From: an uncultured bacterium
GTDB taxonomy: Bacteria > Fidelibacterota > UBA2242 > JAFGTP01
Reading direction: 5' to 3'
NCBI GenBank assembly: GCA_964472715.1
Contig: CAYYMT010000001.1
Coordinates: 13,321-77,320, forward strand
DNA: 64,000 nucleotides
Shown here: positions 2,454 through 58,949 of the stretch, piece after piece
How the letters are laid out: each line of letters starts with the position of its first letter
How positions within the stretch are numbered: the first letter of the stretch is position 1
Program-made: the position numbers and the translations under genes
Notes under the pieces: model-generated
Database searches by the model: none
What the model was told of the DNA's origin: nothing
Seen by the model: the letters and a program-made list of their open reading frames with translations, nothing else

Positions 2454-2459
2454 GAAAAT

Positions 2460-7647: not shown

Positions 7648-7878
7648 GATTTCCTCATCGCTTATTGGCACCTTTACTATAATAAGTATTTTATCTAACT
7701 AAAATCAAATAATCCCCCTTTTTTTTCTTTATAATTAAAATAATTACTAATAAAGGCTACAACGGTATTTGACAAACAGTTACCGGACAGACATGATAAA
7801 AGAGATGACTTTTAGGAGAGTCGCCGATTATTCTGTTGAAAGTTATCGGACTTTATTTTATATTGGACTATAAATATT

Positions 7879-8766
7879 ATGGGGACATTAATCATGAAAA
7901 AGAAATTACTGATCTTTTTTCAAATTTTAACACTGGTCATTATAATTTTATTGGCGATTTCTACTTTTTTCATTCAGCACCATGATCCGGCAAATTATAG
8001 TGATAATGCTATTGTCAGATTGTTATGTTTGGACCATTATTACAACTCCTGGCTGAATGTGAGCTTATTTATGCTCATGGCATTGCTGCTATTGTTTTCA
8101 CTCTTGAGTGGCGGAATAAAAAGTCGCTGCCAGCAAATATTACACATCACAATTTTAGGGTCATTTTTCATTATAATGTTTGATAAAGGTTTTAATCAGC
8201 GCACGATAGTACCCTTTCCTGAAAAAGAAACCATCAATTTTTCCGATATTATTAATGATCCCGATACGGACCATACAATTATCCTGGATAAATTTGAAAT
8301 CGATTTGCATACCGGTAGCCGGATGGTCAAAGCCTATGTCAGTCATTTGATCATCAATGAAATGGACACAGTACAATTGAAGGTGAACAAACCGGTCCAA
8401 ATCGGCAAATACAATCTCTACCAAAATGCCTATGACCGGGTACCTGTTTATGACTTAAAAATTAAGGATTATAATTATGGGATATCTCCTTTTGATACTT
8501 TATATGTGGATGGCAATCAAGTGTTTATTGACCTTTCGCAAGATTATAAACAGATGACCTTCCACTTCAATGAACAGGAACATGTCTTGTCGGTTAGAGG
8601 CGGACGCTTCCACATTGCGGAATTTCCGGTTGAAATTGAAATGGAGGGGATGAAGTATGTCAGCATTATTGAAGTCGCTGAAGTGCGTGGCATGGGGCTT
8701 TTGCTGATCTTTGGAATTGGCTATTTGATTTCCCTTGGCTATTGTTTTTGGAGGAAAAAATCATGA
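7879..8766 (+). CDS. ccsB: Cytochrome c biogenesis protein, ResB/CcsB-like (system II), short form
   Basis: N-terminal TM helices, a periplasmic domain and a C-terminal TM helix. The 3' end overlaps ccsA by 25 nt. It is divergent from the multiheme cytochrome. The assignment rests mostly on context. Confidence 0.45.
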   Translation: MGTLIMKKKLLIFFQILTLVIIILLAISTFFIQHHDPANYSDNAIVRLLCLDHYYNSWLNVSLFMLMALLLLFSLLSGGIKSRCQQILHITILGSFFIIMFDKGFNQRTIVPFPEKETINFSDIINDPDTDHTIILDKFEIDLHTGSRMVKAYVSHLIINEMDTVQLKVNKPVQIGKYNLYQNAYDRVPVYDLKIKDYNYGISPFDTLYVDGNQVFIDLSQDYKQMTFHFNEQEHVLSVRGGRFHIAEFPVEIEMEGMKYVSIIEVAEVRGMGLLLIFGIGYLISLGYCFWRKKS

Positions 8767-9518
8767 TCTATGAAACATATTTACTGCTGGCAGCCGCCTT
8801 TAGTTTTTTAATCGCGCTAATTTTTAGTATTAATCTGAACAAAGAATATACCGGCCGTGTGTTCATCTTTTTGGGAATTGCTTTGCAATTACTTTTGTTG
8901 ATCCTCCGATCTTATTACGCCAAGCATCCGCCTTTTACCAACCTTTATGAAACAATGATTCTGCTGCCTTTCCTCTTTTCCCTGCGATTGGTTTTCTGGA
9001 AGGAACAGGTGAAAGGCAATATTCAATATGGCGTAATTGGTATCATTCTGTTGCTGGATGTTATCGCCATCATGATGCCGGAACATTTGAAAATCATCAA
9101 ACCCCTGATGCCGGCCTTGAATAGTTTCTGGATGTATATCCATGTTCCCGCCTATTTTATTGCTTACGCTTCGATGCTGGTTGCCACAGTACTGGCAATA
9201 TTATTACTGGCACGCAAAGATGACCGGAATATACTGGCAAAAAAACTGGATGGCGAGGTTAAAATCGCTTTCTTCTTTCTGAATGCCGGTATGATCACCG
9301 GCGCCATCTGGGCCTATTATAGTTGGGGAACTTACTGGGGTTGGGATCCTAAGGAGGTTTGGTCGCTGATCAATATTTTGGTGCTCTCTTATTATTTTCA
9401 TATCAATAAAAAAGGGGTAATACCCAAAGCCGTCATTGTGATTATAACCTTACTGACGATTATTTTTACTTATATTGGTGTGACTTTTATTTTACCGGGA
9501 CTGCATAGTTATACATAA
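8742..9518 (+). CDS. ccsA: Cytochrome c-type biogenesis protein CcsA/ResC (system II heme handling)
   Basis: Polytopic membrane protein with the tryptophan-rich WWD motif WGTYWGWDPKEVWSL. Confidence 0.8.
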   Translation: MFLEEKIMIYETYLLLAAAFSFLIALIFSINLNKEYTGRVFIFLGIALQLLLLILRSYYAKHPPFTNLYETMILLPFLFSLRLVFWKEQVKGNIQYGVIGIILLLDVIAIMMPEHLKIIKPLMPALNSFWMYIHVPAYFIAYASMLVATVLAILLLARKDDRNILAKKLDGEVKIAFFFLNAGMITGAIWAYYSWGTYWGWDPKEVWSLINILVLSYYFHINKKGVIPKAVIVIITLLTIIFTYIGVTFILPGLHSYT

Positions 9519-9916
9519 GTTTCTTCTAATTTAAAACACCGGTGGTCAGATATAAATCTTGTAGAACGACCTTCCGGGTCGTTCAATGTTTGCCTGAGCG
9601 GTAAAATATATAACCAGAGGAATTAATTGCTTTAGATAACGCTACATAAGCAGGAGGCCTGTGCTACAAATTTATAAATCGCCAAAATACCTTTGATGAA
9701 ATATTCATGCGCAGGATTATGAATATCAACGCTCTTCCTGCGATAATTGACCAAAGACCCGGCGCGATACGTCCGCAAAATTGACCGCGGAACATTCAAA
9801 CCAATCACTTTAATTTGATGGTTTCGTATTATATCCATGAGGATTTTTGTGTAGCCGTAATTGAAACTTTCCCGGGATTTACGGTTTAACAAATTAATAA
9901 TAAACGCATTACATGA

Positions 9917-35579: not shown

Positions 35580-35831
35580 TTAAGCCGACTTGTAAGTATC
35601 ATAAATTCCTTTCCAGCCGGCGGGTGTCAAAAATTTGAAATGGTAATCATCGTCTGAACAATTGGCTTTAATCGTTATTGAACCGGGGCTGTTTTGGGTT
35701 AACGGATATGTTTCAATTTCCGGAATCAATCCTGAATTATTAAATTCTGAATAGAATTCAGGGGGATGAAAAGGATCATCAGGATATTGACATTGTGGCA
35801 ACTTTGCTATAAATACATCAGGTTTTGTCAT
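35580..35831 (-). CDS. Hypothetical small protein (83 aa), probably translationally coupled to the upstream adenylating enzyme
   Basis: The ORF overlaps the preceding gene's stop by 14 nt. No recognisable motif. Pro, Asp and aromatic-rich. Confidence 0.3.
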   Translation of the reverse strand: MTKPDVFIAKLPQCQYPDDPFHPPEFYSEFNNSGLIPEIETYPLTQNSPGSITIKANCSDDDYHFKFLTPAGWKGIYDTYKSA

Positions 35832-37158
35832 TTTTCACCTTTGAAAATACAAATTGGTATTTCCCCGATTTAAGTTTGGGTAGGGACTCGATAATGTTGA
35901 ATTTTATTTCACATGGCTCTCCCATAATATAATTAATTTTATTTTTTACTTTATCTAAATTATTATCACTTACTTCACTTTTTTGGGCTTCCAGATTAAT
36001 GGTGAATTTTTGATAATCCTCCTGAATCAGTTGAAATTTTTTCACAGACCTCATGAAATAGAACAAATGGGTAAACAGTTCACCATGAATAATATTGCCG
36101 TCCTTGCGAATAATGTGGGCGTTTTCACGGCCGTTTAATCCGGATAAGGAGCGAACGGCAGTACCGTCTATAGTATGACTTTCGCCAATATCGCCGGTAT
36201 CGAATTTTATCAGCGGCATGGCATAATTATTCAGCTGCGTTATAATGACATTGCCAACGCCCGCGTTCCTGATATATTGCCGGGAATTTTTGTTAAATAA
36301 CTCCAGATAAACGGAATGGCTGAATATATCGATATCCTCAGTTCCGATTCCAATAATACCAACTTCCTTTGAACCATATTGGTTAGCAATAATGGATTCC
36401 GGAAAAGCCGCCTTGATTTCCTCTTTTAACTCCGAATACATGGTTCCGGCGGTACAAACAATAACGTGGGGCTGAAAAACCTTCAGATTGGGATTACGAT
36501 TTTTATATTTGGCGATTTCAAAGATCGAATCCACATAAGTCCAGATCATTTTGGGGCGCACCGCATTGATTACCTCAATATAGTTTTCAATCAGGCGATG
36601 ATTGAGTTTGAAACTATTAAGCAAAATCCGGTTAAAGAAGTAATTTTTTAATTTACCGGAAAAGGATTTCTTTTCGTTGAAAATATCCTTTTCCGACCCC
36701 CATAGTTTGATCTCCTGCTCGCCGGGATGTTTATCATATAATTCGCCAAAATACAAGGTGTCCGCTACCATGCGGTTATAATAGTCGCTATCTTGTATAA
36801 AAACCACCGGCTCACCCGTTGATCCGCAGGAATTATTTTTGTAAATTTTTCGGCGGTGATTGTCTTTTGAGCATATTTGCTCATAGTTTTCCCGAATAAT
36901 TTTCTTAGTCAGAAGGGGAATTTGATTAAATTTCTCCCAATTGATTTTATCGTCTTTAATCAGGCCGATTTCATTAAAAAGTCTGTGATAATAAGTAGTA
37001 TTATGATAAGCATGAAATATTAATTTTCGCAACCGGAATAATTGATAATTATAAACATTTTCCCTATTTACATAGAGTTTTCTGGTCTGACGTAAATATT
37101 TAAGCACATCGGGTTTATATAATCTCAGTAAAATTGGCGCTATTTTGGTCTTAATCAT
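35818..37158 (-). CDS. CapK / phenylacetate-CoA ligase (PaaK)-like adenylate-forming enzyme
   Basis: NSCGSTGEPVVFIQD resembles the PaaK/F390-synthetase P-loop (SSGTTGKP). The size and the C-terminal lysine region fit. The start is taken at MIKTK (37158) to avoid overlapping the asnB-like gene; the ORF track extends to 37227. Confidence 0.6.
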   Translation of the reverse strand: MIKTKIAPILLRLYKPDVLKYLRQTRKLYVNRENVYNYQLFRLRKLIFHAYHNTTYYHRLFNEIGLIKDDKINWEKFNQIPLLTKKIIRENYEQICSKDNHRRKIYKNNSCGSTGEPVVFIQDSDYYNRMVADTLYFGELYDKHPGEQEIKLWGSEKDIFNEKKSFSGKLKNYFFNRILLNSFKLNHRLIENYIEVINAVRPKMIWTYVDSIFEIAKYKNRNPNLKVFQPHVIVCTAGTMYSELKEEIKAAFPESIIANQYGSKEVGIIGIGTEDIDIFSHSVYLELFNKNSRQYIRNAGVGNVIITQLNNYAMPLIKFDTGDIGESHTIDGTAVRSLSGLNGRENAHIIRKDGNIIHGELFTHLFYFMRSVKKFQLIQEDYQKFTINLEAQKSEVSDNNLDKVKNKINYIMGEPCEIKFNIIESLPKLKSGKYQFVFSKVKNDKT

Positions 37159-39031
37159 AATATACATCCAGCCATTTTTGAAAGACATAAAGCGTCCACA
37201 ATAATTTCCGGTTATCCTTTTTTTCATTTAGATGATCCTGCATGAGACTGTCGATATAATCGTAATTAAAAATATTATAATGCTGAATATTTTGCCTGGA
37301 CAGCGTTTGCAGAAATTCTGATTTCAAATCTGATTTTATCCACTTGGTAACGGGAATGCCAAATCCTTTTTTGGGACGATTGATAATTTTTTCCGGAAGA
37401 TATTTTTTGGCCAGGCGTTTCAGTAAATATTTTGACGTCAGGCCGCGATATTTTAGCCGGGCCGGCACTTTCGCCATGAACTCCACCACTTCCTTGTCCA
37501 AAAACGGAACCCTAACCTCCAGGGAATTCATCATACTGGCGCGGTCAACCTTGACCAGCATATTATCCTGCAGATAAAAGCGCATGTCCAGCCACAAAGA
37601 CCGCTCCCAGTTATTTTCTGTCTGGCACCGTTTCATATGCTGCCTGATGATTTCTAATTTTTGAACCTTCTTACCCAGCACATTCAATAATTCAGGTGAT
37701 AGCAGATGTTTTTTTTGGTTAGTATCAAAGGAGCCGAGCCATATCTGATGGCGAATATCAGGATCATACTTCAGGCCTGCAACAAATTTCTTGGCTTTAA
37801 AATCAAAACTTATATTCTCGTCTGATGTTGGTAACAAATTCACCACCGGATTAAGCAGATAATGTGAAAATCGCGGCATAAAACCACCGATTTTCCGGGC
37901 TAAATAAGTTGGATATCCGGCAAATATTTCGTCACCCCCATCACCGCTCAGAGCAACAGTGACATTTTCCCTGGTGAGTTGCGACAGCAGATAAGTGGGC
38001 AAAATGGAATCGTCAGCAAAGGGTTCGTCCATATTGCGGACAATTTCCGGCAGGATGTCCATCATTTCACCAGGTGTAAAAATTTTTTCAAAGTGTTCCG
38101 TATCCAGATAGCCCGACATAAACCGGGCGTAACTGGTTTCATCAAAAGAATCTTCGGCAAATCCAATACTGAAGGTTTTCAGGTTATTTTTCATGCTTCT
38201 TGATAAGTAGGCCGCAATCAGGCTGGAATCAAGGCCACCGCTGAGGAAAGACCCCAACGGCACATCACTGACTTTGCGGCGCTCCACGGCCTTCCTGATC
38301 AGCCAATCCAGTTCCTGAACATAAAAATCAACATCACGGGAGCTATACTTTGGCTGAAATTCTAAAAAATAATATTGATGCCTGGTTAATTTATTCCTTG
38401 ATAATTCCAGATAATGGCCCTGTTCAAGCTTATGAATATTATTAAAGATCGATAAGGGAGCCGGTACCGATTCGAATGTCAGGTAATAATTCAGCGCTTC
38501 ATAGTTGAGTTCTTTTTTGAAAGCAGGAAAAGTGAGAATGGATTTTAGTTCCGAAGCAAAAATGAAATCGCCATCTTTATGGTAATAATATAACGGCTTG
38601 ATGCCAAAGCGGTCCCGGGCCAGGAAAAGTGAGTCCCGGTTGAGATCAAGAATAGCAAAAGCAAACATGCCGTTCAGTTTATCCAGGCAGTTCACCCCTT
38701 CTTCTTCATAAAGATGCAAAATGACTTCTGTATCGGATTGGGTTTTAAATTGATGACCCGCCGCCTGTAACCTTTTTCTCAGTTCCCGGAAATTATAGAT
38801 TTCGCCGTTAAAAACAATCGCCAGTGATCTGTCCTCATTAAAAATCGGCTGGTCTCCGGTGTTGATATCAATCACCCGCAACCTGCGCATGCCAATGGCA
38901 AAATCATCGATCACAAAATATCCGCTGTCATCCGGGCCGCGATAAGCGATTTTATCGCACATTTTTTCCAGTATATTGGATTTTTCCTGCTGTGAAAATT
39001 TTTTTGATATGAATCCGGCTATCCCACACAT
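37151..39031 (-). CDS. asnB: Asparagine synthetase (glutamine-hydrolysing) family amidotransferase (AsnB/PseA-like)
   Basis: N-terminal MCGIAG Ntn-Cys. PP-loop SGGLDSS in the synthetase domain. 626 aa. Confidence 0.85.
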   Translation of the reverse strand: MCGIAGFISKKFSQQEKSNILEKMCDKIAYRGPDDSGYFVIDDFAIGMRRLRVIDINTGDQPIFNEDRSLAIVFNGEIYNFRELRKRLQAAGHQFKTQSDTEVILHLYEEEGVNCLDKLNGMFAFAILDLNRDSLFLARDRFGIKPLYYYHKDGDFIFASELKSILTFPAFKKELNYEALNYYLTFESVPAPLSIFNNIHKLEQGHYLELSRNKLTRHQYYFLEFQPKYSSRDVDFYVQELDWLIRKAVERRKVSDVPLGSFLSGGLDSSLIAAYLSRSMKNNLKTFSIGFAEDSFDETSYARFMSGYLDTEHFEKIFTPGEMMDILPEIVRNMDEPFADDSILPTYLLSQLTRENVTVALSGDGGDEIFAGYPTYLARKIGGFMPRFSHYLLNPVVNLLPTSDENISFDFKAKKFVAGLKYDPDIRHQIWLGSFDTNQKKHLLSPELLNVLGKKVQKLEIIRQHMKRCQTENNWERSLWLDMRFYLQDNMLVKVDRASMMNSLEVRVPFLDKEVVEFMAKVPARLKYRGLTSKYLLKRLAKKYLPEKIINRPKKGFGIPVTKWIKSDLKSEFLQTLSRQNIQHYNIFNYDYIDSLMQDHLNEKKDNRKLLWTLYVFQKWLDVYYD

Positions 39032-43152: not shown

Positions 43153-43383
43153 CTATTTTTTTTTGCTGAAGGATTTTAGTATATCAGCATTCAAGGTGCT
43201 GTTAAAAACGGAAGCGCGATTTTTTGCCTTGATTCGTTCGTATACCTCTTCACGATGCACCGGAACCTCGCGGGGCGCGTTAATTCCGATTTTGGTGTGG
43301 CCGTTACTGCATTCCAAAACTCTGATGACGATGTTGCTTCCAATTCTGATACTCTCTTCGGTTTTTCTGGTTAAAACAAGCAT
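43153..43383 (-). CDS. csrA: Carbon storage regulator CsrA
   Basis: MLVLTRKTEESIRIGSNIVIRVLECSNGHTKIGINAPREVPVHREEVYERIK matches CsrA almost along its full length, including the GxxG RNA-binding region. Confidence 0.9.
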   Translation of the reverse strand: MLVLTRKTEESIRIGSNIVIRVLECSNGHTKIGINAPREVPVHREEVYERIKAKNRASVFNSTLNADILKSFSKKK

Positions 43384-43413
43384 ACTCCCTCCATGGAATA
43401 TTATTAAAATAGT

Positions 43414-43848
43414 TTAAAATTTGTCTAATTTGTGTTCCTCGGACAATTTCGGATCATCCAATATGATCTGTTTGCCATTGCCTGTAAAGGTATTCAATAT
43501 CAATGGCGCTTTGGTATTGGCCACAAAATGTTTTGTTTCTTCGTCAATCCGCAGGATTACAAAAAGGCGTAAATACTTTTGATCCTCAATTTCAAGATTA
43601 CGCATTTCATTTTTTGGAAATGAAATATCGTCAAAAATATTCAGAAGGCTTCCATCCAGAACGATCATGGATATATCCGGCAATTCTGTGGATTGAAACA
43701 ATTTGAAGGGTGGAAAGTCTTCCAGGTTTTTGAATTCAAATTCTGACAAATGTTCAAATCCCGGCAAGCCATATTCAAAATTGAATATTGTCGCACTTCC
43801 GGTTTTTGCTTCTTTAGTCATTACATTGCTCATCTTCATATCTTTCAT
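43414..43848 (-). CDS. fliW: Flagellar assembly factor FliW
   Basis: IFNFEYGLPGFEHLSEFEF...FKLFQSTE...MIVLD follows the FliW pattern. It sits immediately upstream of csrA in the conserved fliW-csrA pair. The true start may be an internal Met near 43821. Confidence 0.75.
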   Translation of the reverse strand: MKDMKMSNVMTKEAKTGSATIFNFEYGLPGFEHLSEFEFKNLEDFPPFKLFQSTELPDISMIVLDGSLLNIFDDISFPKNEMRNLEIEDQKYLRLFVILRIDEETKHFVANTKAPLILNTFTGNGKQIILDDPKLSEEHKLDKF

Positions 43849-43852
43849 TTAG

Positions 43853-44734
43853 TTATCGGAGAAAATTCAATATATTGAGATTGATCGCATTTGAGGTGGA
43901 ATGCAAAGCAGCCTGATAAGCGGTTTCTTCATTCTTGTAATTGGTAATCGCTTCAGCCATATCCGCATCCTCCAGGTTGGATAAATAGGACTTCAGATTC
44001 ACATTGGCGGTGTTCAGACGGTTTTCCGTATTGATGATCTGAATTTTTGACGAACCAATAGCTGAACTGCGTTTGCCGATTTCCGCCGATGAATCATCGA
44101 GCAGGTCAATGGCTTTGGTAATCGCGTCAGTATCACCATTATCCAGAGCATTCTTAAAATTGATCAAATTTTCAAAAGCCTCTGTTTCAATTAATTCCTG
44201 ACCGGTGGTATTAATATCCACATAATAATTATCAGCTATTTTACGGTTCACTTTTTTATCATTACCCGTGTAAGTGATTGAATTGCCATTGTATATAAAA
44301 GCTTTGTCTGTTTTGGATTTTGTGCCGGCAAAGACAGCTTTACCCATGAATGTTGAGTTTGACAAGGAAACAGTATCCTCAATAATATCATTGACCTGAT
44401 CCCGGAAAGTTTCCCAATTGTCGCCATTATTGGATATATCAGCCGCGCGAATGGCGATTTCCTTGGCTGTTACCAGTCCTTCATTGATCTGGTCCAAAGC
44501 AGACAGGGATACATCGATCCAGCCTTTTGCCAGACTAATGCCCTCCAGGTATTGGCTGTTGTTGGAAATAGCATTCCGGAAAGATTCCACTTTCGTGTAA
44601 TCCACAGGATCATCGGAAACTTTTTCCAGTTTTTTCCCGGTGGCAGTCTGATTTTGGTATACCGCCATTTTTTCACGGCTTGAATTAATGTTGGTTAATA
44701 AATTTCTTGATATCATACCTTCTGTTATTCGCAT
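43853..44734 (-). CDS. flgL: Flagellar hook-associated protein 3 (FlgL)
   Basis: MRITEGMISRNLLTNINSSREKM...ATGKKLEKVSDDPV matches the flagellin-N/FlgL N-terminus. The C-terminal ...AINLNILNFLR fits as well. 293 aa. Confidence 0.8.
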   Translation of the reverse strand: MRITEGMISRNLLTNINSSREKMAVYQNQTATGKKLEKVSDDPVDYTKVESFRNAISNNSQYLEGISLAKGWIDVSLSALDQINEGLVTAKEIAIRAADISNNGDNWETFRDQVNDIIEDTVSLSNSTFMGKAVFAGTKSKTDKAFIYNGNSITYTGNDKKVNRKIADNYYVDINTTGQELIETEAFENLINFKNALDNGDTDAITKAIDLLDDSSAEIGKRSSAIGSSKIQIINTENRLNTANVNLKSYLSNLEDADMAEAITNYKNEETAYQAALHSTSNAINLNILNFLR

Positions 44735-44746
44735 AATTACCTCTGA

Positions 44747-46105
44747 TTAGATCAAAGTTAATATTGTATCTACCAGCGTTTGCACCGTACCGATAACTTT
44801 GGCTGAGGCCTGGTAGGCTTGCTGATATTTTGATAAATTGACAAGTTCTTCATCGAGACTGACCCCGGATTCGGAATCCTGCTGGTTCTTGATAGTCATC
44901 ACTATTTTTTCCTGGCTGGACATCAGATCTTCGGATTTTTTTACCTTAGCGCCTACATCCGTCGCAATTCCACTATAATAATTATTTAAAGAAACGCCAT
45001 TCAGGGTGTTCCGGTTTTGGATTTCATTGATCTGCCGGGCAATATTGGAGTTGGCGCTCTCCCCTATTTGATCGGAAGTGGCGACTAAGTAGGGATTTGT
45101 GGCAATCAGATTATTCACGGCAAAATTACCGGCGCTATTAATGTTTTCCTTAAAAAATGGAATTCCGGTGTGGTCTTCCAGGTCATAGCCCTTTTGATGA
45201 ATTTTATTGACTTCATTGGCTAAATTGGTAGCCACCCGGTCCAGCCGGGAACGATAATCCGGAAGATGCTGATTGGATATGGCAAGTAAACTTCCTAATT
45301 CACCGGATTTGAGGTTAATATTCTTATCATTTTTTTTCAATCGGATGTGATAATTACTGGAATTGCCGATATTCTCGGAAACCACTTCCAATTCATTAAC
45401 CTGGTCACCGGATACTAAAATCTGTCCCGCTGCGGCGACAGTGACATCACCGAATTTTCCCGCTGATGTTTGAATCTCAAAATATTCAGACAGGTTACTG
45501 ACCAAGCGGTCCCGTTCATCCATAATAGCATCGGAATTATTAGCTGTGATTTCCTTGTTGATTTCCGCCAGAGCGTGGAGTTTGTTATTTATGTCTTCCA
45601 CATTACCGTTCATATTCGTGGCAATATTTTTTTTCAGGTTGATCAGATCATTGTTGACACGATTAAAGGCTTTTTCCAAGGCAACGGCTTTGTCTACTAC
45701 CACCATTCGGGCCGGTTCACTTTCCGGATCAGAAGCCAAATCTCCCCAGGCGCCCCAAAATTCATTGAGATGCTGCGAAATCCCGCTTGCGCCGGGTTCA
45801 CCAAAAATATCCTCAATCTGGGTAAACATCTGGGAATCCATGGAATATTTTGCCAGATTCGGATTCTGTGTCAAAAATTGTTCATCAATAAAATCATTGC
45901 GCTTTCGTGCCAGTTCTTTACTGATCTGACTGTTGGTAATTGTGCCAAATTTAGCCGTTTGAGAATTCATGTCGGAAAAAGTTGCCAGCCGCCGGGAATA
46001 TCCCGGTGTATTGATATTGGCAATATTTTCAGAGGTGAGTTCCAGCGCGGATTTATTCGACTGAACGCCTCGTTTTGAATGATCTAATATTCCTGAGATT
46101 GACAT
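44747..46105 (-). CDS. flgK: Flagellar hook-associated protein 1 (FlgK)
   Basis: GVQSNKSALELTSENIANINTPGYSRR is the rod/hook N-terminal motif. 452 aa. The C-terminal YQQAYQASAKVIGTVQTLVDTIL is the conserved FlgK C-terminus. Confidence 0.85.
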   Translation of the reverse strand: MSISGILDHSKRGVQSNKSALELTSENIANINTPGYSRRLATFSDMNSQTAKFGTITNSQISKELARKRNDFIDEQFLTQNPNLAKYSMDSQMFTQIEDIFGEPGASGISQHLNEFWGAWGDLASDPESEPARMVVVDKAVALEKAFNRVNNDLINLKKNIATNMNGNVEDINNKLHALAEINKEITANNSDAIMDERDRLVSNLSEYFEIQTSAGKFGDVTVAAAGQILVSGDQVNELEVVSENIGNSSNYHIRLKKNDKNINLKSGELGSLLAISNQHLPDYRSRLDRVATNLANEVNKIHQKGYDLEDHTGIPFFKENINSAGNFAVNNLIATNPYLVATSDQIGESANSNIARQINEIQNRNTLNGVSLNNYYSGIATDVGAKVKKSEDLMSSQEKIVMTIKNQQDSESGVSLDEELVNLSKYQQAYQASAKVIGTVQTLVDTILTLI

Positions 46106-46117
46106 AAATACTCCGAA

Positions 46118-46627
46118 TTAAATTTGCTGATTAACAAATTTTTGATTCACTTCCTTGATATATTTCTTCCCCTTGATACTGTACATATTGTTCTCTTCTT
46201 TTCCCGAATGTAGAAAAATATTGGTCATTTGCCGAATATGATCGATGGAAAAATGCAGCAGGCTTTCATTTTGGCGATTGACGGTCTTGATTTCATTGAG
46301 GATATTTTTCAGATCGTAGTGCAAAACTTCCATTTTTTTCTTTTCCGGTTCCGGACTAAAGCCGACAAAATCCCTAAGCGGTATATTCACGCCCCTGATA
46401 TTTCTCCGCTCGCAAAAATCATTGATAAAATCCACCCGTTCCTGAGCTACGGTAACACTATCATTGATGGTTTTCTTTTCTTTCATGATAAGATCGCGTA
46501 ACTCGTCAACCTTTCCCCGAATCACACAAGATTGTTTATCTTTCAGTAAATTCAAAAGGAGTTTGTATACATCTTTTTCCTTTTCCAGTATATTTATCAT
46601 GGTGATATAATCATTATGAGAGTCCAT
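46118..46627 (-). CDS. flgN: FlgN-family flagellar export chaperone (putative)
   Basis: 169 aa, coiled-coil rich. It occupies the position immediately upstream of flgK, as in the Bacillus flgN-flgK-flgL-fliW-csrA arrangement. Confidence 0.45.
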   Translation of the reverse strand: MDSHNDYITMINILEKEKDVYKLLLNLLKDKQSCVIRGKVDELRDLIMKEKKTINDSVTVAQERVDFINDFCERRNIRGVNIPLRDFVGFSPEPEKKKMEVLHYDLKNILNEIKTVNRQNESLLHFSIDHIRQMTNIFLHSGKEENNMYSIKGKKYIKEVNQKFVNQQI

Positions 46628-47025
46628 TATTTAAACACCTCGCTGTCAAGATTAAAGCCCTGGGTTTTATCCTGGTTTAAACTTTCATTGATTTTTGACA
46701 ATTCTTCGCCAATATCCATATCCCTGTCCTGCAAGGACTGATAAATGATCTTAGCCAGTCCGATACCGCCATTTTTCGCCATGGATTTTCCCATTTCCGA
46801 ACTGAACATCATGGAACTCAAAGATCCTGAAGAACTGTTTTCATCTTTTGGAATTGTCTTTTCCATAGTTTTAATTAGTTTGGTTAAAAATATCGCTTCC
46901 ATTTCCTCGGCCTGAGCCTTTAGTTTTCGTTCCCGTTTTAATTGGGGATCGGCAAAATCTGTCCGATTTTTATGAATTTTGGTGGAATTGATTATATTTT
47001 CTGCTGATTTGTCATTTATTTTCAT
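46627..47025 (-). CDS. flgJ: Flagellar rod-binding protein (FlgJ N-terminal-domain type, no muramidase domain)
   Basis: AEEMEAIFLTKLIKTMEKT and GGIGLAKIIYQSL match the Rod_binding family pattern (FEAmFL..mLKsMR...GGlGLa). It follows flgI directly. Confidence 0.7.
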   Translation of the reverse strand: MKINDKSAENIINSTKIHKNRTDFADPQLKRERKLKAQAEEMEAIFLTKLIKTMEKTIPKDENSSSGSLSSMMFSSEMGKSMAKNGGIGLAKIIYQSLQDRDMDIGEELSKINESLNQDKTQGFNLDSEVFK

Positions 47026-47040
47026 GATTATTCACCTGAT

Positions 47041-48168
47041 TTATATAATTATTAAATCGGCATTTAAGGCACCGGCCTGCTTAATGGATTGAAAAATCGC
47101 GATGACATCCCGGGGCCGGAGTCCCAGTTCATTCAAGGCGGCGGCCAGGTCCTGCACGCTGGATGTTTCACGAACCGCGGCGGTTTGGGCAATATCTTCC
47201 TGGGTGGTGGTTTCAGTTACATATTCCACCACTGTGCGGCCAGTATTGGCAAAAGAAGCTGATGGTTGTGAAATAACCGGACGACGTCGAATGTGAATGG
47301 TCAGTGAACCGTGACTGATCATGATTTCGCTGATCGTGACATCACCGCCGGCAACCACTGTTCCTGTTCTCTCGTTGATCACGACACGGGCTTCCACATC
47401 AGGATCGACCTGCAAAGTTTCGATCTCCGCGATAAACTGCACAGCCTGGTGATTGCTTTGCAGATTAGCCGGAACAAGTATTTCAACAACACCGGCGTTT
47501 AATGTAGTTGCCAGTGTGGTATCGATGTTTGGCAATCCGTTAATGGACTCGGCGATTCGGGTAGCAGTTACAAAATCCGGTTCATTGAGTAAAAATCTGA
47601 TGGGCTGGGAAAAATCAAAGCGATTGTTGGGGTCAATCCGGTTCATCACCGCGCCACCGGGAATTCTGCCGACCTGGGCGTGATTTTTTCGCACCTTTTC
47701 ACCGGCGGCAGTTTCGATATTGAATCCACCGACAGAGATCGGGCCCTGAGCCATAGCGTACTGCTGTCCGTCATCGGCCAATAATGGCGCCATCAATAAT
47801 ATGCCCCCTTCAAGACTGGTGGCATCGCCCAGCGAACTGACTGTAACGTCAAAACGGGAGCCGATACGACCAAAGGCCGGCGCATTTGCTGTCACCATGA
47901 CAGCGGCCACATTTCGTGTCCGCAGGTTTTCACGCGGCACAGTAATACCGAAACGTTCCAACATATTAGTAATGGTTTGAACCGTAAAAACCGATCCGTA
48001 GTTGCGGCTGGCTCTGTCACCGGAACCGTCAAGACCGGTTACCAGTCCGTAGCCGATAAGTGATTTGGATGTGGCATTTTCCATGCTCACAATATCTTTG
48101 ATCCGAACCTGACCGGACAAAGTAAGGTTCATAAATATGACAGTTGATATCAGTATTAATTTCTTCAT
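47041..48168 (-). CDS. flgI: Flagellar P-ring protein FlgI
   Basis: Signal peptide present. LIGYGLVTGLDGSGD is the FlgI hallmark. 375 aa. Confidence 0.9.
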   Translation of the reverse strand: MKKLILISTVIFMNLTLSGQVRIKDIVSMENATSKSLIGYGLVTGLDGSGDRASRNYGSVFTVQTITNMLERFGITVPRENLRTRNVAAVMVTANAPAFGRIGSRFDVTVSSLGDATSLEGGILLMAPLLADDGQQYAMAQGPISVGGFNIETAAGEKVRKNHAQVGRIPGGAVMNRIDPNNRFDFSQPIRFLLNEPDFVTATRIAESINGLPNIDTTLATTLNAGVVEILVPANLQSNHQAVQFIAEIETLQVDPDVEARVVINERTGTVVAGGDVTISEIMISHGSLTIHIRRRPVISQPSASFANTGRTVVEYVTETTTQEDIAQTAAVRETSSVQDLAAALNELGLRPRDVIAIFQSIKQAGALNADLIII

Positions 48169-48800
48169 TATGCAAAAAATCCTATATATGCTAAAGCCAT
48201 TAGACCGGCACCAATTCCAACAGTTAATAATTGTTGAATTGCACCGGGTTTGATAAACCGTTTATGTAAATTTCCTTTTTGGTAAGAAATTTCCGCATCA
48301 GCGATATTGTAGGAATAGACTGTGTTGTCAGTGAGAATATCTTTGGGACGAACCATTCCTTTTACCTGCATCAGATTTTTTTCGCCGTTCACTTCCAACA
48401 TGCGGCGCCCTTTGATTTCCAGGATCCCATTATCACTTCGCCCGGTGATCGTTGCAGTGACTTTTCCCACCAGTTTTTCATTTTGCTCCGTCCCTTCCTG
48501 GCCGTCGTGTTCATTTTTAATTGTGCTGCTGGTACCGAAAAGAGGTAAAAAGGACATAATATTTCCTGAAGATTTGCCTTCGGCGCTCATGGAGGATTGG
48601 CTCATGTTTTCGGTTTTGGAATTCTGTTCGGCTTTTGTCTGCTCCACAATAATGACAGTGATTACATCGCCGATATTATGGGCTTTGATATCCGAGAACA
48701 TTGAATTTCTCATACCTTCAAAAACCTGTGCTGACAGACTTGAAAAGGCTAAAATTAAGACAATTGTGATACTACTCATTTTTCTCATTTTCTTACTCAA
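48168..48800 (-). CDS. flgH: Flagellar L-ring lipoprotein FlgH
   Basis: Signal/lipoprotein N-terminus. NIGDVITVIIVEQTKAEQNSKTE matches the FlgH DIITV.I.E motif. 210 aa. Confidence 0.8.
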   Translation of the reverse strand: MSKKMRKMSSITIVLILAFSSLSAQVFEGMRNSMFSDIKAHNIGDVITVIIVEQTKAEQNSKTENMSQSSMSAEGKSSGNIMSFLPLFGTSSTIKNEHDGQEGTEQNEKLVGKVTATITGRSDNGILEIKGRRMLEVNGEKNLMQVKGMVRPKDILTDNTVYSYNIADAEISYQKGNLHKRFIKPGAIQQLLTVGIGAGLMALAYIGFFA

Positions 48801-49479
48801 TATTTATTACCACGGTTTGTGGCGATTCAACAATTCCAAAATAATGTTTGCGTGTTTCCCTGTTGTATACACGAATTTTTTCTCCCCGGCTTCCTTCTTC
48901 TTTGGCAATGCCATTCATTTCGATGAGGATGTTACCGCTTTTTACCTTTAAAGAAACATCCTGTCCCCGGTCTATGACCGGTTTTGTGCGCAGGTCTGTT
49001 TTCATTAAAATGTCGCCTTTGCGAAGAATTGTCTTGGCGATCATGTTATCCGGGATTTTTGTATCCCGTAAATATTTATCATAGTTGTTGCTGACAGAGC
49101 GCTTTTCCAGGCTTAGATCTGCAGCAGTTATGATCCTGCCAAATTTCACATCACGGGTCAATACGGGAGTTAATATTTCAATTTTCGCTGTATAGGTTAT
49201 TCTGATTTCATTCTGGACCCGGTCATTTTTCAGTATCTGGAGTTTAAGACGATTATAACCCACTTCCAGGTCTCTGCTCCGGTTGACAATTTGCAACTCC
49301 CTATTACGAAAATCCAATTCCGGTAAATGGTAGAGTTTCATCTCTACATCGGACTGCTCAATATCATATTTTTCCGCCATTGCATCGATAAGGAAATTTT
49401 TCACAATCCCATGGGAATCATTTTCCCCGGCCAGGAGGAAAAACGCAAATATTAATGATATGAAAATCAGTCGTTTCAT
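48793..49479 (-). CDS. flgA: Flagellar P-ring assembly chaperone FlgA
   Basis: Signal peptide present. The C-terminal SAF-like region reads GDILMKTDL...GQDVSLKVKSGNILIEMNGIAKEEGSRGEKIRVYN. Confidence 0.7.
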   Translation of the reverse strand: MKRLIFISLIFAFFLLAGENDSHGIVKNFLIDAMAEKYDIEQSDVEMKLYHLPELDFRNRELQIVNRSRDLEVGYNRLKLQILKNDRVQNEIRITYTAKIEILTPVLTRDVKFGRIITAADLSLEKRSVSNNYDKYLRDTKIPDNMIAKTILRKGDILMKTDLRTKPVIDRGQDVSLKVKSGNILIEMNGIAKEEGSRGEKIRVYNRETRKHYFGIVESPQTVVINIE

Positions 49480-49482
49480 AGT

Positions 49483-50271
49483 TTACCGCTTCAGGTTATT
49501 GGTCATTGACAGTAATTCATCCGAGGTTTTTATGGCCTTGGAATTGATTTCATAGGCACGCTGGGCCACAATCAGTCCGACCATTTCTTTGACAACATCA
49601 ACATTGGATTTTTCCAGATAGGATTGCACTACTGTTCCAACGCCTTCTTCACCGGGCATTGAAAAAATCGGTTCTCCGGAAGCGGCAGTTTTATCAAACA
49701 AGTTTCCGCCGACAGATTCCAGGCCCGCGGGATTAACAAAAGTCGCCAGTTCAATTTGTCCGATCTCTTCCGGTTGAATTTCATCGGGATATTTGATGGA
49801 AATAATACCGTCTTCACTGATATTGATGCTTTCGGCATTATCAGGAATCGAGATTTCCGGATATACGGAAAGTCCGGAAGCCGTCACCAGGTTGCCGGTG
49901 CTGTCAAGTCTGAGGGAGCCATCCCGTGTAAATCCAATAGTTCCGTCGGGTTTCATCACCTGGAGAAAGCCGCGTCCGTTGATGGCAACATCCAGAGGAT
50001 TACCGGTTTCTTCCAGGTTACCCTTAGTAAAAGAACGAAAAGAAGCAACCGGCTTGTTACCGTGTCCCACCTGAATGGTACCGGGTTTTTCTTTGCCATT
50101 GCGCTGATCAATGTTGCCTGACTGAATATTCTGATACATCAGATCCTGAAACTGAACATCTGATTTTTTATAACCGGTGGTATTCACATTGGCTAAATTA
50201 TTGGAAATTGTGTCAACTTTTAATTGTTGTGCTGACATTCCCAGTGCGGCTGATCTTAATGAACGTATCAT
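49483..50271 (-). CDS. flgG: Flagellar distal rod protein FlgG
   Basis: MIRSLRSAALGMSAQQLKVDTISNNLANVNTTGYKK, with the C-terminal VDVVKEMVGLIVAQRAYEINSKAIKTSDELL, fits FlgG. 262 aa. Confidence 0.9.
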   Translation of the reverse strand: MIRSLRSAALGMSAQQLKVDTISNNLANVNTTGYKKSDVQFQDLMYQNIQSGNIDQRNGKEKPGTIQVGHGNKPVASFRSFTKGNLEETGNPLDVAINGRGFLQVMKPDGTIGFTRDGSLRLDSTGNLVTASGLSVYPEISIPDNAESINISEDGIISIKYPDEIQPEEIGQIELATFVNPAGLESVGGNLFDKTAASGEPIFSMPGEEGVGTVVQSYLEKSNVDVVKEMVGLIVAQRAYEINSKAIKTSDELLSMTNNLKR

Positions 50272-50286
50272 TTATATTACTCCTTT

Positions 50287-51006
50287 TTATACCCTACTGA
50301 TTTGAGTGGACGCCTTACTTAAGGCTTCATCGAGGATTCGAATTGTTCGCTGGGAACTTTCAAAGCCACGTTGCAACTCAATCAGGTTAACCATTTCTTT
50401 AACAGGATTTACATTGGACTGTTCTATTTTTCCCTGCACGACGACCGCATCGCTCTGTTGCTCCGAAACGGCATCTGGGTTCTTCAATCTAAATACACTG
50501 CCGGACAATCTTTCCACCTGCGCGCTATCATTAAAACCGGACAGTTTGAACTGGTCAGCCAGTATATTATCAACATAAATCTCACCTTCGCCATTAACAA
50601 AAATATTATTAACGGTTTCAAAATTTGTCTGCAGATTGATTCTTCCGTTTTCACCTAATACGTAATTTCCCTGATTATCCACCAGATATCCTTCATCATT
50701 CAGTTCAAAATGTCCGTTTCGTGTGTAAACCGTTTCACCATCCGCGTCAATATTAAAAAAACCATCGCCGGAGATTGCAAAATCCAAAGGGTTGTTGGTA
50801 TCTTCAAATTCTCCCTGGGAGAAATCTTTTACCGTTTGAATCGAAAGATTATTGACCTTAGCCATTTTTTTCTCATAGGCATCGAAAAATGTATAGTCTT
50901 TTTTGAAACCAATGGTGTTAACATTCGCCAGATTGTTCGATACAATATCGTTTTTCTTAGTCTGGATTAACATTGCTGATTTCAATTCGTCTAAAGTAAA
51001 GTCCAT
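50287..51006 (-). CDS. flgF: Flagellar proximal rod protein FlgF
   Basis: SNNLANVNTIGFKKDYTFF, with the C-terminal VNPVKEMVNLIELQRGFE, fits a rod protein. It lies immediately upstream of flgG. Confidence 0.8.
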   Translation of the reverse strand: MDFTLDELKSAMLIQTKKNDIVSNNLANVNTIGFKKDYTFFDAYEKKMAKVNNLSIQTVKDFSQGEFEDTNNPLDFAISGDGFFNIDADGETVYTRNGHFELNDEGYLVDNQGNYVLGENGRINLQTNFETVNNIFVNGEGEIYVDNILADQFKLSGFNDSAQVERLSGSVFRLKNPDAVSEQQSDAVVVQGKIEQSNVNPVKEMVNLIELQRGFESSQRTIRILDEALSKASTQISRV

Positions 51007-51042
51007 TATTCTTAATTCTCCTTTTTTCTGGTTTTGACTATA

Positions 51043-51058
51043 CGCAAATCGATTGCCA
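51043..51058 (-). promoter_or_regulatory. Sigma54-type -24/-12 promoter element (TGGCAA-N5-TTGCG) upstream of flgF
   Basis: The minus strand reads TGGCAATCGATTTGCG, giving GG-N10-GC spacing. It sits ~37 nt upstream of the flgF ATG, with an AGGAG RBS in between. Confidence 0.5.
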
Positions 51059-51133
51059 TAAATGCCATTGATTTATATATTTTTATTTAAATTCTTGTTT
51101 TATAGTGGATTATAAAGAATGAAAGAGGTGAGA

Positions 51134-51210
51134 GTTATTACTGTTTGTTGAATTTTATAGAATTTTATTATTTGTTAGCGGAATTTTATTACTGTTTGTG
51201 GAATTTTTTT
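51134..51210. promoter_or_regulatory. Three tandem imperfect ~26-bp direct repeats (TTATTACTGTTTGTKGAATTTT) upstream of the flgF operon, candidate activator/enhancer sites
   Basis: Copies at 51135-51157 and 51187-51209 are 22/23 identical. A degenerate middle copy lies at 51161-51186. They are ~130-200 bp upstream of flgF. Confidence 0.5.
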
Positions 51211-51220
51211 CCATCATAGG

Positions 51221-51793
51221 TTATTCAATTATCTTTTTAGTGATTCTTGCGGCGCGGTCAGTACTTAATGCTTTTAAAACCATGGGGCGTTTTCTGGAAC
51301 TCATATTATTGTACAGGGCAATGATCGTTTCATCGTCCAATTGAGTAAAAATCGGTTTGATCTCACTGACTTTCATGCTCTCATAGGTCTTTGCCATCTG
51401 TTTTATCTGTTCACTGGTTATGCCGGCATTTTGATCGGGTTGGTTGTTGGCCTGTGCGAGTTCTTCTTCCAGTTTTTTTATTTCCAGACTATCGGCGATA
51501 ATCTCTCTGTTTTGTTGTTGTGCAAGCCCGGTCAAACTATCGATATCGGATTGCAATGTGTCCCGGGCCAACAAATGTTCCTGATTTAACGCTTGCAAGG
51601 AATCAATAATAGTTTGCTTCTCTGATAACAATAATCCCAGAATCGAATTATCCTCCTCCACCGGCCCGCTGTTCACCGGAACAATATTCGGCTTTGCCAA
51701 TCCATCCATCAAACTCAGTACGCCAAAGACCAATCCCACAAGGATCAGAAAAAAGAGTAAGCCGCCGACAATTAATAAAATTATTCTTTTCAT
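51221..51793 (-). CDS. Flagellar operon membrane protein with an MgtE_N-like domain (YlxF/MotE/FlbB-like)
   Basis: N-terminal TM helix, a coiled coil, and a C-terminal KPIFTQLDDETIIALYNNMSSRKRPMVLKALSTDRAARITKKI. It occupies the position after fliJ, as ylxF does in Bacillus-type operons. Confidence 0.4.
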   Translation of the reverse strand: MKRIILLIVGGLLFFLILVGLVFGVLSLMDGLAKPNIVPVNSGPVEEDNSILGLLLSEKQTIIDSLQALNQEHLLARDTLQSDIDSLTGLAQQQNREIIADSLEIKKLEEELAQANNQPDQNAGITSEQIKQMAKTYESMKVSEIKPIFTQLDDETIIALYNNMSSRKRPMVLKALSTDRAARITKKIIE

Positions 51794-57299: not shown

Positions 57300-57584
57300 T
57301 TAACCTCGTAAGTCCAGTAATTGACCTTTGTTAATTTGTTTGATATCATTGTGTCCGTATAATTTCATATCATCGGGCATTTGTGTGCCGAAAAACATGT
57401 GCAGGGTACTTTTTTCATTATTGGATAGCAATTTTGCTGTTTTATCTTTTCTTTCCTGCATAGCCGCCGGGTCCATCAACAGCTCGTTATCATCATTAAA
57501 ATTTTGATTGTTGACCTGACGTTCATTTTGGTCTTTATAAAAGTTGCCGGAAAGGTTGTTTTGTATGGATGATAAAATACTCAT
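57300..57584 (-). CDS. Hypothetical N/Q-rich small protein inserted between flgC and fliE
   Basis: 94-aa ORF sitting exactly in the gap between two tightly spaced flagellar genes. No recognisable motif. Confidence 0.35.
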   Translation of the reverse strand: MSILSSIQNNLSGNFYKDQNERQVNNQNFNDDNELLMDPAAMQERKDKTAKLLSNNEKSTLHMFFGTQMPDDMKLYGHNDIKQINKGQLLDLRG

Positions 57585-58084: not shown

Positions 58085-58462
58085 TTACATCCGTCCTTTT
58101 ATACTGAGTTCCATTTTTTTAAACCATCTTGACAATCGCTTTGTGGCAAATTCATTACGGATTTGGTTTTCCGCCAGGTCCGCCATTTCTTTGGTTACCT
58201 CAACTTTCTCTTTTCCCCGGTCTTCCGGAAATAAAGTTGCCTGATAATGGGGAGAGGTAATATGCTTTGTATTGGATTTTTTCAGTGCTGAATTTTCCTG
58301 AGCGATTTTCAATTCTTCAGAAAAATCGGTTTTGGTCCTTCTGTAATAGGGATCATTGACATTGGCAATATTCCTGGAGATTGCCTGATGTTGCTTATTA
58401 TAAACGTCAACTGCATTTTTGACTAGTTTTTTTTGATTTGTTCCAAATATATCAAATTCCAT
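58085..58462 (-). CDS. flgB: Flagellar basal-body rod protein FlgB
   Basis: AISRNIANVNDPYYRR rod N-terminal motif. 125 aa. First gene of the flgB-to-fliJ block. Confidence 0.8.
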   Translation of the reverse strand: MEFDIFGTNQKKLVKNAVDVYNKQHQAISRNIANVNDPYYRRTKTDFSEELKIAQENSALKKSNTKHITSPHYQATLFPEDRGKEKVEVTKEMADLAENQIRNEFATKRLSRWFKKMELSIKGRM

Positions 58463-58949
58463 AGCACTTCTCTTTTTTTATTGGCTTTGAAAATGTCAAG
58501 AGCTATGCCAAAAAAAATTATCTCAATATATAAAAAATATACAAAATGAGATAATCCTCTAGTATACATTCAGATAGAATAAATTATCAGGGATTATTTT
58601 TTTACCGGGAAAGACTACGGCAATATAAAATATAGAATAAATTCGCTGGAATTTTTTTCCAATTCAAATCAAAAACCGTATTTTTTACTGCCGGACACGC
58701 ACTTTCCATTATCGGTTATTGAATAAATTTCTTTAATATTTTATTGTGACTTTATTGTTTTTTATCAAAAAATGAGATTTTTTATTGTAATGTTAACTTT
58801 TTACCCGCTTTTATGAAAAATATTCCTGTTTACTGGAAAAATATTATGTCTCAATCTTACGTTTATTAAGTTTTCAACCTGCCAGACTACTTTTTTTTTA
58901 AAATCTATTGTATTAAATTGACCGGTCAAAAATTAAATTATGAAGGAGA

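Follow-up and report, generated by a model that had tools for sequence, protein, structure and literature searches.

Nearly all that is established about the regulation of flagellar genes comes from Proteobacteria, Firmicutes, and spirochaetes, whereas Marinimicrobia (SAR406/Fidelibacterota) and Calditrichota are abundant and mostly uncultured. At glnAp2, the GG-N10-GC promoter is preceded, at a distance of over 100 bp, by two same-face dyads that NtrC binds, and these dyads nucleate a looping oligomer of the enhancer-binding protein (EBP). In Caulobacter crescentus, FlbD binds ftr dyad elements that precede the sigma-54 flagellar promoters of several operons by some 100 bp or more. The general scheme, in which a response-regulator EBP and sigma-54 serve the rod, ring, and hook tier of flagellar genes, has been reviewed, along with two variants: FlgR of Helicobacter pylori is without a DNA-binding domain and is enhancer-independent, and the C-terminal domain of Campylobacter jejuni FlgR is dispensable (PMC3930126). 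In the comparatively reconstructed DVU1063 regulon of Desulfovibrio vulgaris, variant GAFTGA loops are tolerated and most sites lie 40–70 bp downstream of promoters; the FlrA/FleQ-type site is quoted in the same work as a GTCA-N6-TGAC repeat (PMC4641369). Here, we analyse a 64-kb stretch of DNA from an uncultured bacterium (contig CAYYMT010000001.1; hereafter, the window), whose minus strand carries two adjoining blocks of flagellar genes. The gap between the two blocks, immediately upstream of flgF, is likely an internal, enhancer-dependent sigma-54 promoter region, judging by its comparison with the equivalent regions of relatives. Coordinates of the features discussed below are collected in Table 1.

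The closest database proteins come from uncultured FCB-group metagenome-assembled genomes (MAGs); a 100 per cent identical FlgF carries the label "Bacteroidota bacterium", and the nearest named relatives are labelled Candidatus Marinimicrobia or Fidelibacterota. The syntenic loci that we compared encode FlgF proteins that are 87 (L107), 77 (L082), 72 (L084/85), 68 (L086/87), 67 (L088), 66 (L089), and 53 per cent (L090) identical to that of the window. The FlgF proteins of the distant loci L002–L011 (Marinimicrobia and Calditrichia, including Caldithrix abyssi) are 38–43 per cent identical and were among the matches listed in the FlgF profile search. The set used for phylogenetic footprinting comprised 18 flgF loci with FlgF identities from 87 down to 38 per cent, extending from Marinimicrobia to Caldithrix. 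The alignment of flgF regions (A2) contained 9 relatives and that of flgB regions contained 7, and the window's clade is represented by eight sequences.

On the minus strand, the flgF gap reads ...ATGGCATTTATGGCAATCGATTTGCGTATAGTCAAAACCAGAAAAAAGGAGAATTAAGAATAATG, and close before flgF it contains TGGCAA-TCGAT-TTGCG (that is, TGGCAATCGATTTGC at 51044–51058, then a G at 51043), in which all 9 specified bases of the pattern TGGCA-N6-TTGC are matched. An earlier reading of this DNA from its letters alone (hereafter, the sequence-only reading) had noticed a GG-N10-GC arrangement at this place and had called it a sigma-54 promoter. The arrangement is indeed there, and it ends 36 nt before the flgF ATG. 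An AAGGAG Shine-Dalgarno sequence is situated 11 nt before the ATG, and the stretch AAAAAGGAG in this Shine-Dalgarno/start region is conserved in relatives. Transcription would begin near 51032, with a leader of approximately 26 nt.

Motif counts, taken over 128 kb of two-strand sequence, do not set this site apart. The exact pattern TGGCA-N6-TTGC occurs once in the window, at flgF, and shuffled sequences contain it 0.8 times on average; one-mismatch versions are at chance level (20 found vs 19.6 expected), and the loose pattern GG-N9-TGC is not enriched (85 found vs 99 expected). The significance of the promoter therefore comes from its position and conservation rather than from the number of matches. 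Specifically, TGGCA-N6-TTG(C/A) is found in 18/18 flgF loci, with the T of TGGCA positioned 42–57 nt before the flgF ATG, and the –12 element reads TTGC at 15 of these 18 promoters. The alignment of 9 relatives shows no change in the TGGCA and TTG columns, whereas the spacers vary (TCGAT, TTGAT, TCCAT, TTCAT, and AGATG) and the flanking sequence has diverged within the window's clade. Such a pattern is a clean phylogenetic footprint of a bipartite –24/–12 element. The distant loci carry the canonical TGGCAC-N5-TTGCA at the same position (for example, TGGCACCACATTTGCAT in Caldithrix abyssi; also TGGCACCGCATTTGCAA and TGGCACTGTGTTTGCAT). Because the motif is in place in all 18 orthologous promoters and is canonical in the distant ones, the sigma-54 call of the sequence-only reading is strongly supported by phylogenetic footprinting.

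Farther upstream in the gap is a perfect 15-bp palindrome, the predicted upstream activating site 1, with its centre approximately 149 nt upstream of the –24 GG. Sequences of the form TGGAA-N5-TTCCA occur exactly twice in the window (vs 0.19 expected), in the regions upstream of flgF and flgB. The distance from the palindrome to the TGGCA of flgF is 140 nt in the window and 139–142 nt in the six relatives from the window's clade that keep the exact palindrome. More generally, a G[GT]AA-N4-6-TTCC site starts 122–191 nt upstream of TGGCA in 18/18 flgF promoters, against a background of 0.03 per interval of that size, a contrast that overstates independence because the pattern was refined after some of the sequences had been viewed.

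A second, weaker dyad, predicted upstream activating site 2, is centred 20 bp from the midpoint of site 1. It is the window's version (GTAATAAAATTCC) of a second element of flgF gaps, ATAAAATTCCG, whose TTCC comes 20 bp after the first. The right half of site 2, A(A/T)ATTCCG, is kept in all eight sequences aligned from the window's clade, whereas the left half varies. In Calditrichia, there are two full GTAA-N4-5-TTCC copies 21 bp apart in L004 and in Caldithrix abyssi (L010), and the raw sequences of L006 and L011 contain a second TTCC-ending element approximately 20–22 bp from the scored site. Site 2 may thus be the binding site of a second EBP dimer.

These dyads are not the repeats that had drawn attention to the gap. 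The sequence-only reading described three direct repeats at a regular spacing of about 26 bp and took them for EBP sites. Repeat copies do exist: two near-perfect 22-nt copies are 95 per cent identical and start 51 bp apart, and a weaker middle copy can be aligned with one indel. The regular spacing, however, does not hold, as the starts at 51135, 51165, and 51186 are 30 and 21 bp apart, and of the three units only the two distal ones are conserved. With Tandem Repeats Finder, the periods detected were 20 (2.3 copies, 51160–51207) and 10 (1.9 copies, 51150–51168). As for the proposed function, the conserved unit is a 13–15-bp dyad, G[GT]AA-N4-6-TTCC, which is out of register with the repeats, each dyad spanning the junction of two units. 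Candidate EBP sites are therefore present, but the repeat units do not delimit them, and the proximal copy is neither conserved nor dyad-bearing: it is recognizable only in the window and partly in L107, the 87 per cent relative, and it contains no G[GT]AA-N4-6-TTCC site.

The proximal copy is part of an AT-rich block in which, throughout the window's clade, the junctions between A-tracts and T are separated from the palindrome by approximately 10, 30, 40/43, 51, 61, and 70 nt, and within which the block TAATAAAAnnnTATAAAAT is conserved in the alignment. Phased A-tracts of this kind would be expected to bend the DNA and so to aid looping. It is conceivable, though we would not bet on it, that the three-unit array is mostly architectural, owing its form to A-tract bending or to an IHF/HU-like site and partly to recent duplication, and that only the distal palindrome is protein-specific. 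The junctions recurring every ~10 bp over 60–70 bp after the palindrome, the periods of 20 and 10, the lack of conservation of the proximal copy beyond the closest relative, and the presence at flgB of the palindrome with no such array are all in keeping with this idea. It accounts less well for the ATTCCG half-site of site 2, whose presence in all eight clade sequences is stronger conservation than AT-richness needs, and for the full second dyads 21 bp away in L004 and L010 and the second TTCC-ending elements in L006 and L011. An architectural role of the array complements the enhancer-dependent promoter and does not exclude it.

The flgB block is preceded by a similar arrangement. In its –24/–12-like motif, TGGCAT-N5-TTGA, the T of TGGCA is 48 nt away from the flgB ATG, and all 7 aligned relatives have the core TGGCA-N6-TTGA unchanged. 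At the –12 position, flgB promoters read TTGA in 8 cases and TTGT in 1 (region set: window, L084, L086, L088, L092, L121, L127, and L128). The palindrome upstream of flgB is the same 15-mer as site 1 of flgF, and it is separated from TGGCA by 136 nt in the window and by 136–140 nt in relatives with exact TGGAA...TTCCA arms; in L082, the palindrome carries a symmetric double change (AAGAAAAAAATTCTT). Because flgB shares with flgF the same palindrome at the same distance from a –24/–12-like motif, one regulator probably switches both operons together. We also scanned metagenome contigs for the composite TGGAAAAWWWTTCCA-N130-150-TGGCA-N6-TTG, which yielded 36 stretches, five of which precede flgB or flgF homologs (in L092, L105, L107, L121, and L122); under this strict pattern, flgB and flgF are the only recognizable flagellar genes so preceded. 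The other 31 matches were rejected, as most of them are inside open reading frames (ORFs), and the intergenic ones that we inspected (a Bacteroides-like gene start, a probable eukaryotic sequence, and L125) had no flagellar context.

Two further features of the flgB region deserve mention in their own right. The stretch TGGCATAGCTATTGAC is common to five of the 7 flgB regions in the alignment, a degree of conservation beyond what would be required of a sigma-54 site by itself. Additionally, there is a FliA/sigma-28-type consensus, TAAAG-N14-ACCGATAA, whose start is 273 nt from the flgB ATG and whose –10 element ends approximately 50 nt short of the flgB palindrome, on its upstream side. This consensus is the sole match in the window to TAAA-N15-[GA]CCGATA[AT]. 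L121 and L084/L122 (GCCGATAA) keep it, though its spacer varies, and part of it can be seen in L086, where the contig ends. It may serve to transcribe a long flgB leader or a small RNA, or to feed back onto the sigma-54 promoter.

The architecture common to the two regions bears on whether flgF has a promoter of its own. Were there none, flgF would be expressed by read-through from flgB only, and the elements in the gap would act on RNA or bind a protein unrelated to initiation. The two blocks are indeed on the same strand and adjacent throughout the window's clade, and no intrinsic terminator was found in the 214-bp gap scanned between flgF and the 190-amino-acid ORF that ends the flgB block. 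However, the gap copies the palindrome-plus-TGGCA architecture of flgB with the same spacing, and flgB has no upstream operon on its strand. The upstream neighbours of flgF differ in L090 and in the more distant loci, and the motif is nonetheless kept there. An Rfam scan of the gap matched no family, which argues against a role at the RNA level. Read-through as the only source of flgF transcripts is thus very improbable; if read-through from flgB does occur, the internal promoter would add to it rather than replace it.

The same sequences could in principle be served by a different sigma factor (a housekeeping FCB-type factor, FliA/sigma-28, or an extracytoplasmic function factor), with the palindrome bound by a conventional activator or repressor instead of an AAA+ EBP. 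Three resemblances would fit: TTGAC(A/T) at flgB resembles a sigma-70 –35 hexamer, TTCCGATAA in site 2 is conserved in relatives and resembles the sigma-28 –10 element GCCGATAA, and a true sigma-28-type motif exists further upstream of flgB. Furthermore, rpoN was not seen in the window or in loci L001–L126. Yet no –10 element is conserved 16–18 nt after TTGAC. The distance from TTGAC to the ATG, only 33 nt in the window and approximately 30–35 nt in most relatives, leaves too little room, and TAAA is absent 14–16 nt before TTCCGATAA in every sequence; the sigma-70 and sigma-28 readings of these two elements were rejected on these grounds. A Bacteroidetes-type TAnnTTTG promoter was likewise rejected, the motif being absent or unconserved. 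A consensus scan of the coding (minus) strand of the flgF gap found no sigma-70-like promoter, and the 9 flgF and 7 flgB regions contain no conserved sigma-70, TAnnTTTG, or sigma-28 pattern. The positions that are invariant are instead GG and TTG(C) at a fixed 10-nt spacing, which become TGGCAC-N5-TTGCA in distant relatives, and a site at a fixed distance 120–190 nt upstream is typical of an enhancer rather than of a class I/II activator. We therefore consider transcription by another sigma factor a poor prospect, and sigma-54 remains the preferred factor.

Distant relatives offer a candidate for the activator. In L092, whose FlgB is 44 per cent identical to that of the window, the exact palindrome and TGGCACAATAGTTGA precede flgB, and directly upstream of this element, on the same strand, is a gene for a 453-amino-acid protein (1304–2665, minus strand) composed of a receiver domain, a sigma-54-interaction AAA+ domain (Sigma54_activat), and a C-terminal Fis-type helix-turn-helix (HTH) domain (HTH_8). 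A receiver/AAA+/HTH_8 gene is found directly upstream of the flgB element in three distant relatives, L092, L127, and L128, whose rod proteins are approximately 42–46 per cent identical to the window's. In L127 and L128, the gene order is che genes, FapA, response regulator, response regulator, EBP, intergenic region, and flgB onward (flgB-flgC-ORF-fliE-fliF-fliG-fliH-fliI-fliJ); the intergenic region contains GGAA-N5-TTCC and TGGCAT-N5-TTG(T/A), and the first response regulator of L127 has a weak GAF domain match.

Homologs of this EBP, 55–84 per cent identical among the best 120 listed, are common in MAGs labelled Marinimicrobia, Neomarinimicrobiota, Calditrichaeota, or FCB group. For at least 10 family members, the length of the longest contig equals that of a FlgF homolog, which hints at, but does not prove, a shared contig and thus linkage to flagellar clusters. 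In NCBIfam, the L092 EBP and family member P0179 score 339 and 372 bits against FlbD and 333 and 337 bits against FlgR (cut-off of 750 each), and their best match is AtoC (446–449 bits vs a cut-off of 714). The flgB-linked EBP is thus a member of the NtrC family that falls below every named-family equivalog cut-off. The sequence-only reading had assigned the regulator to the FleQ/FlrA/FlgR class, which is imprecise: the receiver and HTH_8 architecture is common to FlrC, FleR, FlbD, and Campylobacter FlgR, but no named family is reached. Of the 120 family members (P0121–P0240), 119 have an intact Walker A motif, GESGTGK, and most have a sigma-54 contact loop of the form G[AS]FT[NHS]A (GSFTNA in 37, GAFTNA in 29, GAFTHA in 11, GSFSGA in 11, and others).

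Some neighbouring genes of this system are arranged differently from lineage to lineage. The window's clade is rearranged upstream of flgB (58463–58949), where a divergent M3 peptidase gene is the neighbour in place of the EBP gene of the distant relatives. The 190-amino-acid ORF is followed by the flgF operon in the window's clade, but by fliK in L127 and L128, plus flgD in L128; in L127, TGGCATATTCATTGAA stands before fliK. In L090, the 53 per cent relative, genes for PAS/HATPase and GAF/HisKA histidine kinases (7140–9622) lie directly upstream of the flgF enhancer and promoter, and come after flhB, flhA, flhF, flhG, and a FliA-like sigma factor gene. These kinases are candidate sensor partners of the EBP.

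Taken together, we propose the following mechanism. Sigma-54 RNA polymerase holoenzyme would occupy TGGCAA-N5-TTGCG as a closed complex. A phosphorylated NtrC-family response-regulator EBP (receiver, AAA+, and Fis-type HTH) would bind the TGGAAAAAAATTCCA palindrome and probably also the weaker dyad GTAATAAAATTCC, which is two helical turns away on the same helical face. The EBP would oligomerize, reach the polymerase by looping of approximately 120 bp of AT-rich DNA with phased A-tracts, and open the promoter with ATP, and transcription would run from near 51032 through flgF to csrA and plausibly on into the glycosylation genes. The same EBP would switch the flgB operon. Binding of the EBP and of sigma-54 at these sites, and the looping itself, are predictions from sequence comparison.

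Several observations weigh against this proposal. In 128 kb of two-strand sequence, one exact TGGCA-N6-TTGC is statistically unremarkable. Since no terminator was found before flgF, read-through from the flgB promoter could also supply it. The canonical –12 C is absent from the flgB promoter in every relative from the window's clade (TTGA). No EBP gene was found in the window, nor in the loci of roughly 20 kb that represent its closest relatives; a search with the GAFTGA motif and with phmmer, using Escherichia coli NtrC, retrieved only L019, L020, and L042 (from unrelated phyla) and L092. RpoN was likewise not found in the window or in loci L001–L126 (phmmer with E. coli RpoN and an RpoN-box regular expression). 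Finally, the loop of the EBP family departs from the canonical GAFTGA, which occurs in 1 of the 120 members, although the variants that Kazakov et al. (PMC4641369) expect to remain active include GAFTHA, GAFSGA, and GSFTGA. The conserved binding site and the distant relatives suggest that the window's own genome encodes the EBP, and sigma-54 would be expected there as well, for which the sigma-54-type EBPs of related MAGs are the only, and indirect, support.

Two of these details, the missing –12 C at flgB promoters and the EBP loop unlike GAFTGA, might exceed the ordinary. Since flgB promoters are without the near-universal –12 C, 15/18 flgF promoters keep TTGC, and the EBP loop is G[AS]FT[NHS]A, one may speculate that the lineage runs a modified sigma-54 system, in which one activator serves two promoter classes that differ in –12 fork-junction locking; we think this rather unlikely. 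If true, flgB-fliF-fliI would form an early or leaky class and flgF-flgK-csrA a class tightly dependent on the activator, with no second regulator involved, and a further layer of feedback would come from the conserved FliA-type promoter that precedes the flgB enhancer by approximately 50 nt.

Table 1. Genes, repeats, and predicted regulatory elements of the window.
Feature	Position	Strand	Basis or remark
Putative sigma-54-type –24/–12 promoter of the flgF operon, TGGCAATCGATTTGCG	51043–51058	minus	GG at 51056–51057, GC at 51044–51045
Predicted upstream activating site 1 of flgF, perfect 15-bp palindrome TGGAAAAAAATTCCA	51199–51213	.	conservation and rarity
Predicted upstream activating site 2 of flgF, imperfect dyad GTAATAAAATTCC	51180–51192	minus	right half conserved
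AT-rich block with helically phased A-tracts	51135–51179	minus	includes the proximal repeat copy
Repeat, near-perfect 22-nt copy (proximal)	51135–51156		
Repeat, weaker middle copy	51165–51187		
Repeat, near-perfect 22-nt copy	51186–51207		
Shine-Dalgarno AAGGAG and flgF start codon	51018–51023 and 51004–51006	minus	read from sequence
Gap between the flagellar blocks, upstream of flgF	51007–51220		214 bp
flgF transcription unit (flgF 50287–51006, csrA 43153–43383)	43153–51006	minus	Pfam and NCBIfam assignments, gaps, gene order same in relatives
flgB block: flgB, flgC, 94-amino-acid ORF, fliE, fliF, fliG, fliH, fliI, fliJ, 190-amino-acid ORF	flgB 58085–58462	minus	
Putative promoter of flgB-flgC-...-fliJ-orf190, –24/–12-like TGGCATAGCTCTTGAC	58495–58510	minus	one mismatch (TTGA, not TTGC)
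flgB upstream palindrome TGGAAAAAAATTCCA	58647–58661	.	identical 15-mer to flgF site 1
FliA/sigma-28-type consensus upstream of flgB	58709–58735	minus	
190-amino-acid ORF after fliJ	51221–51793	minus	
94-amino-acid ORF between flgC and fliE	57300–57584	minus	no Pfam match
469-amino-acid ORF	35818–37227	minus	no Pfam match
392-amino-acid ORF	5084–6262	minus	no Pfam match

The unit that the flgF promoter would serve consists of flgF, flgG, flgA, flgH, flgI, a gene with a rod-binding domain, flgN, flgK, flgL, fliW, and csrA. The flgF-to-csrA gene context named by the sequence-only reading was confirmed, with intergenic gaps of at most 15 nt, and the genes appear to be co-transcribed. After a gap of 9 nt, csrA is directly followed by genes for a tetratricopeptide repeat glycosyltransferase, a sulfotransferase-like protein, a GT4 glycosyltransferase, and an asparagine-synthase-like protein. 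Because this gap is short and the synteny is conserved, read-through from the flgF unit into the glycosylation genes is plausible.

Four ORFs of the window stand without a clear assignment. The 190-amino-acid ORF has a sub-threshold MgtE_N match (21 bits vs a cut-off of 25.9) and no NCBIfam match, and is kept in all relatives compared. The 94-amino-acid ORF has no gene name, and a counterpart of 92–93 amino acids occupies the same position in every relative, the distant L127 and L128 included. The 469-amino-acid ORF closes the tightly packed block of flagellar and glycosylation genes, and the 392-amino-acid ORF stands apart from that block.

The comparison yields a testable regulon signature, G[GT]AA-N4-6-TTCC approximately 140 bp upstream of TGGCA-N6-TTG(C/A), a candidate family for the cognate regulator, and a route to annotating flagellar class structure in MAGs. 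It would place the genes for the rod, the L/P ring, the hook-filament junction, and FliW-CsrA, and plausibly those for flagellin glycosylation, in one activator-dependent unit. A full-text literature search found no paper naming Marinimicrobia together with rpoN or sigma-54, and nothing was found on flagellar sigma factors of Caldithrix abyssi. These results are of use for annotation and comparison and offer no new concept, as the mechanism is conventional and would not surprise a specialist. The regulatory design is the known one of FlrC/FleR/FlbD-like control, and what is new is its occurrence in this poorly studied lineage.

Among the described systems, FlrC of Vibrio and FleR of Pseudomonas resemble the proposed one in having a receiver/AAA+/HTH activator and sigma-54 promoters before basal-body and hook-associated operons. 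In those bacteria, the activator belongs to a two-component system, and here histidine kinase genes adjoin flgF in L090. The lineage, however, belongs to the FCB group rather than to Gammaproteobacteria, no FlrA/FleQ-type master regulator was seen, the EBP is the equivalog of no NCBIfam family, and the predicted site GGAA-N5-TTCC is unrelated to the FlrA/FleQ-type GTCA-N6-TGAC repeat. To our knowledge, GGAA-N5-TTCC matches no described flagellar EBP site, including the motifs quoted in PMC4641369.

The FlgS/FlgR system of Campylobacter and Helicobacter also relies on a response-regulator EBP for its sigma-54 rod and hook genes, and FlgR matches the EBP at 333 bits, far below the cut-off of 750. 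Unlike in that system, the EBP here keeps HTH_8, and the conserved dyad at a fixed distance implies enhancer dependence. FlbD of Caulobacter crescentus matches at 339–372 bits, likewise below 750; its site sequence is different, and nothing was seen that would tie the present system to a cell cycle. The DVU1063 regulon of Desulfovibrio vulgaris is comparable in the kind of evidence, namely conserved EBP dyads and –24/–12 promoters before flagellar operons, but the sites described here are 120–190 bp upstream of the promoter. NtrC at glnAp2 differs in regulon, which here is flagellar, in site sequence, and in its GAFTGA loop, in place of which the EBP family has G[AS]FT[NHS]A, yet it resembles the predicted flgF enhancer in that a GG-N10-GC promoter is preceded by two dyads facing the same side of the helix.

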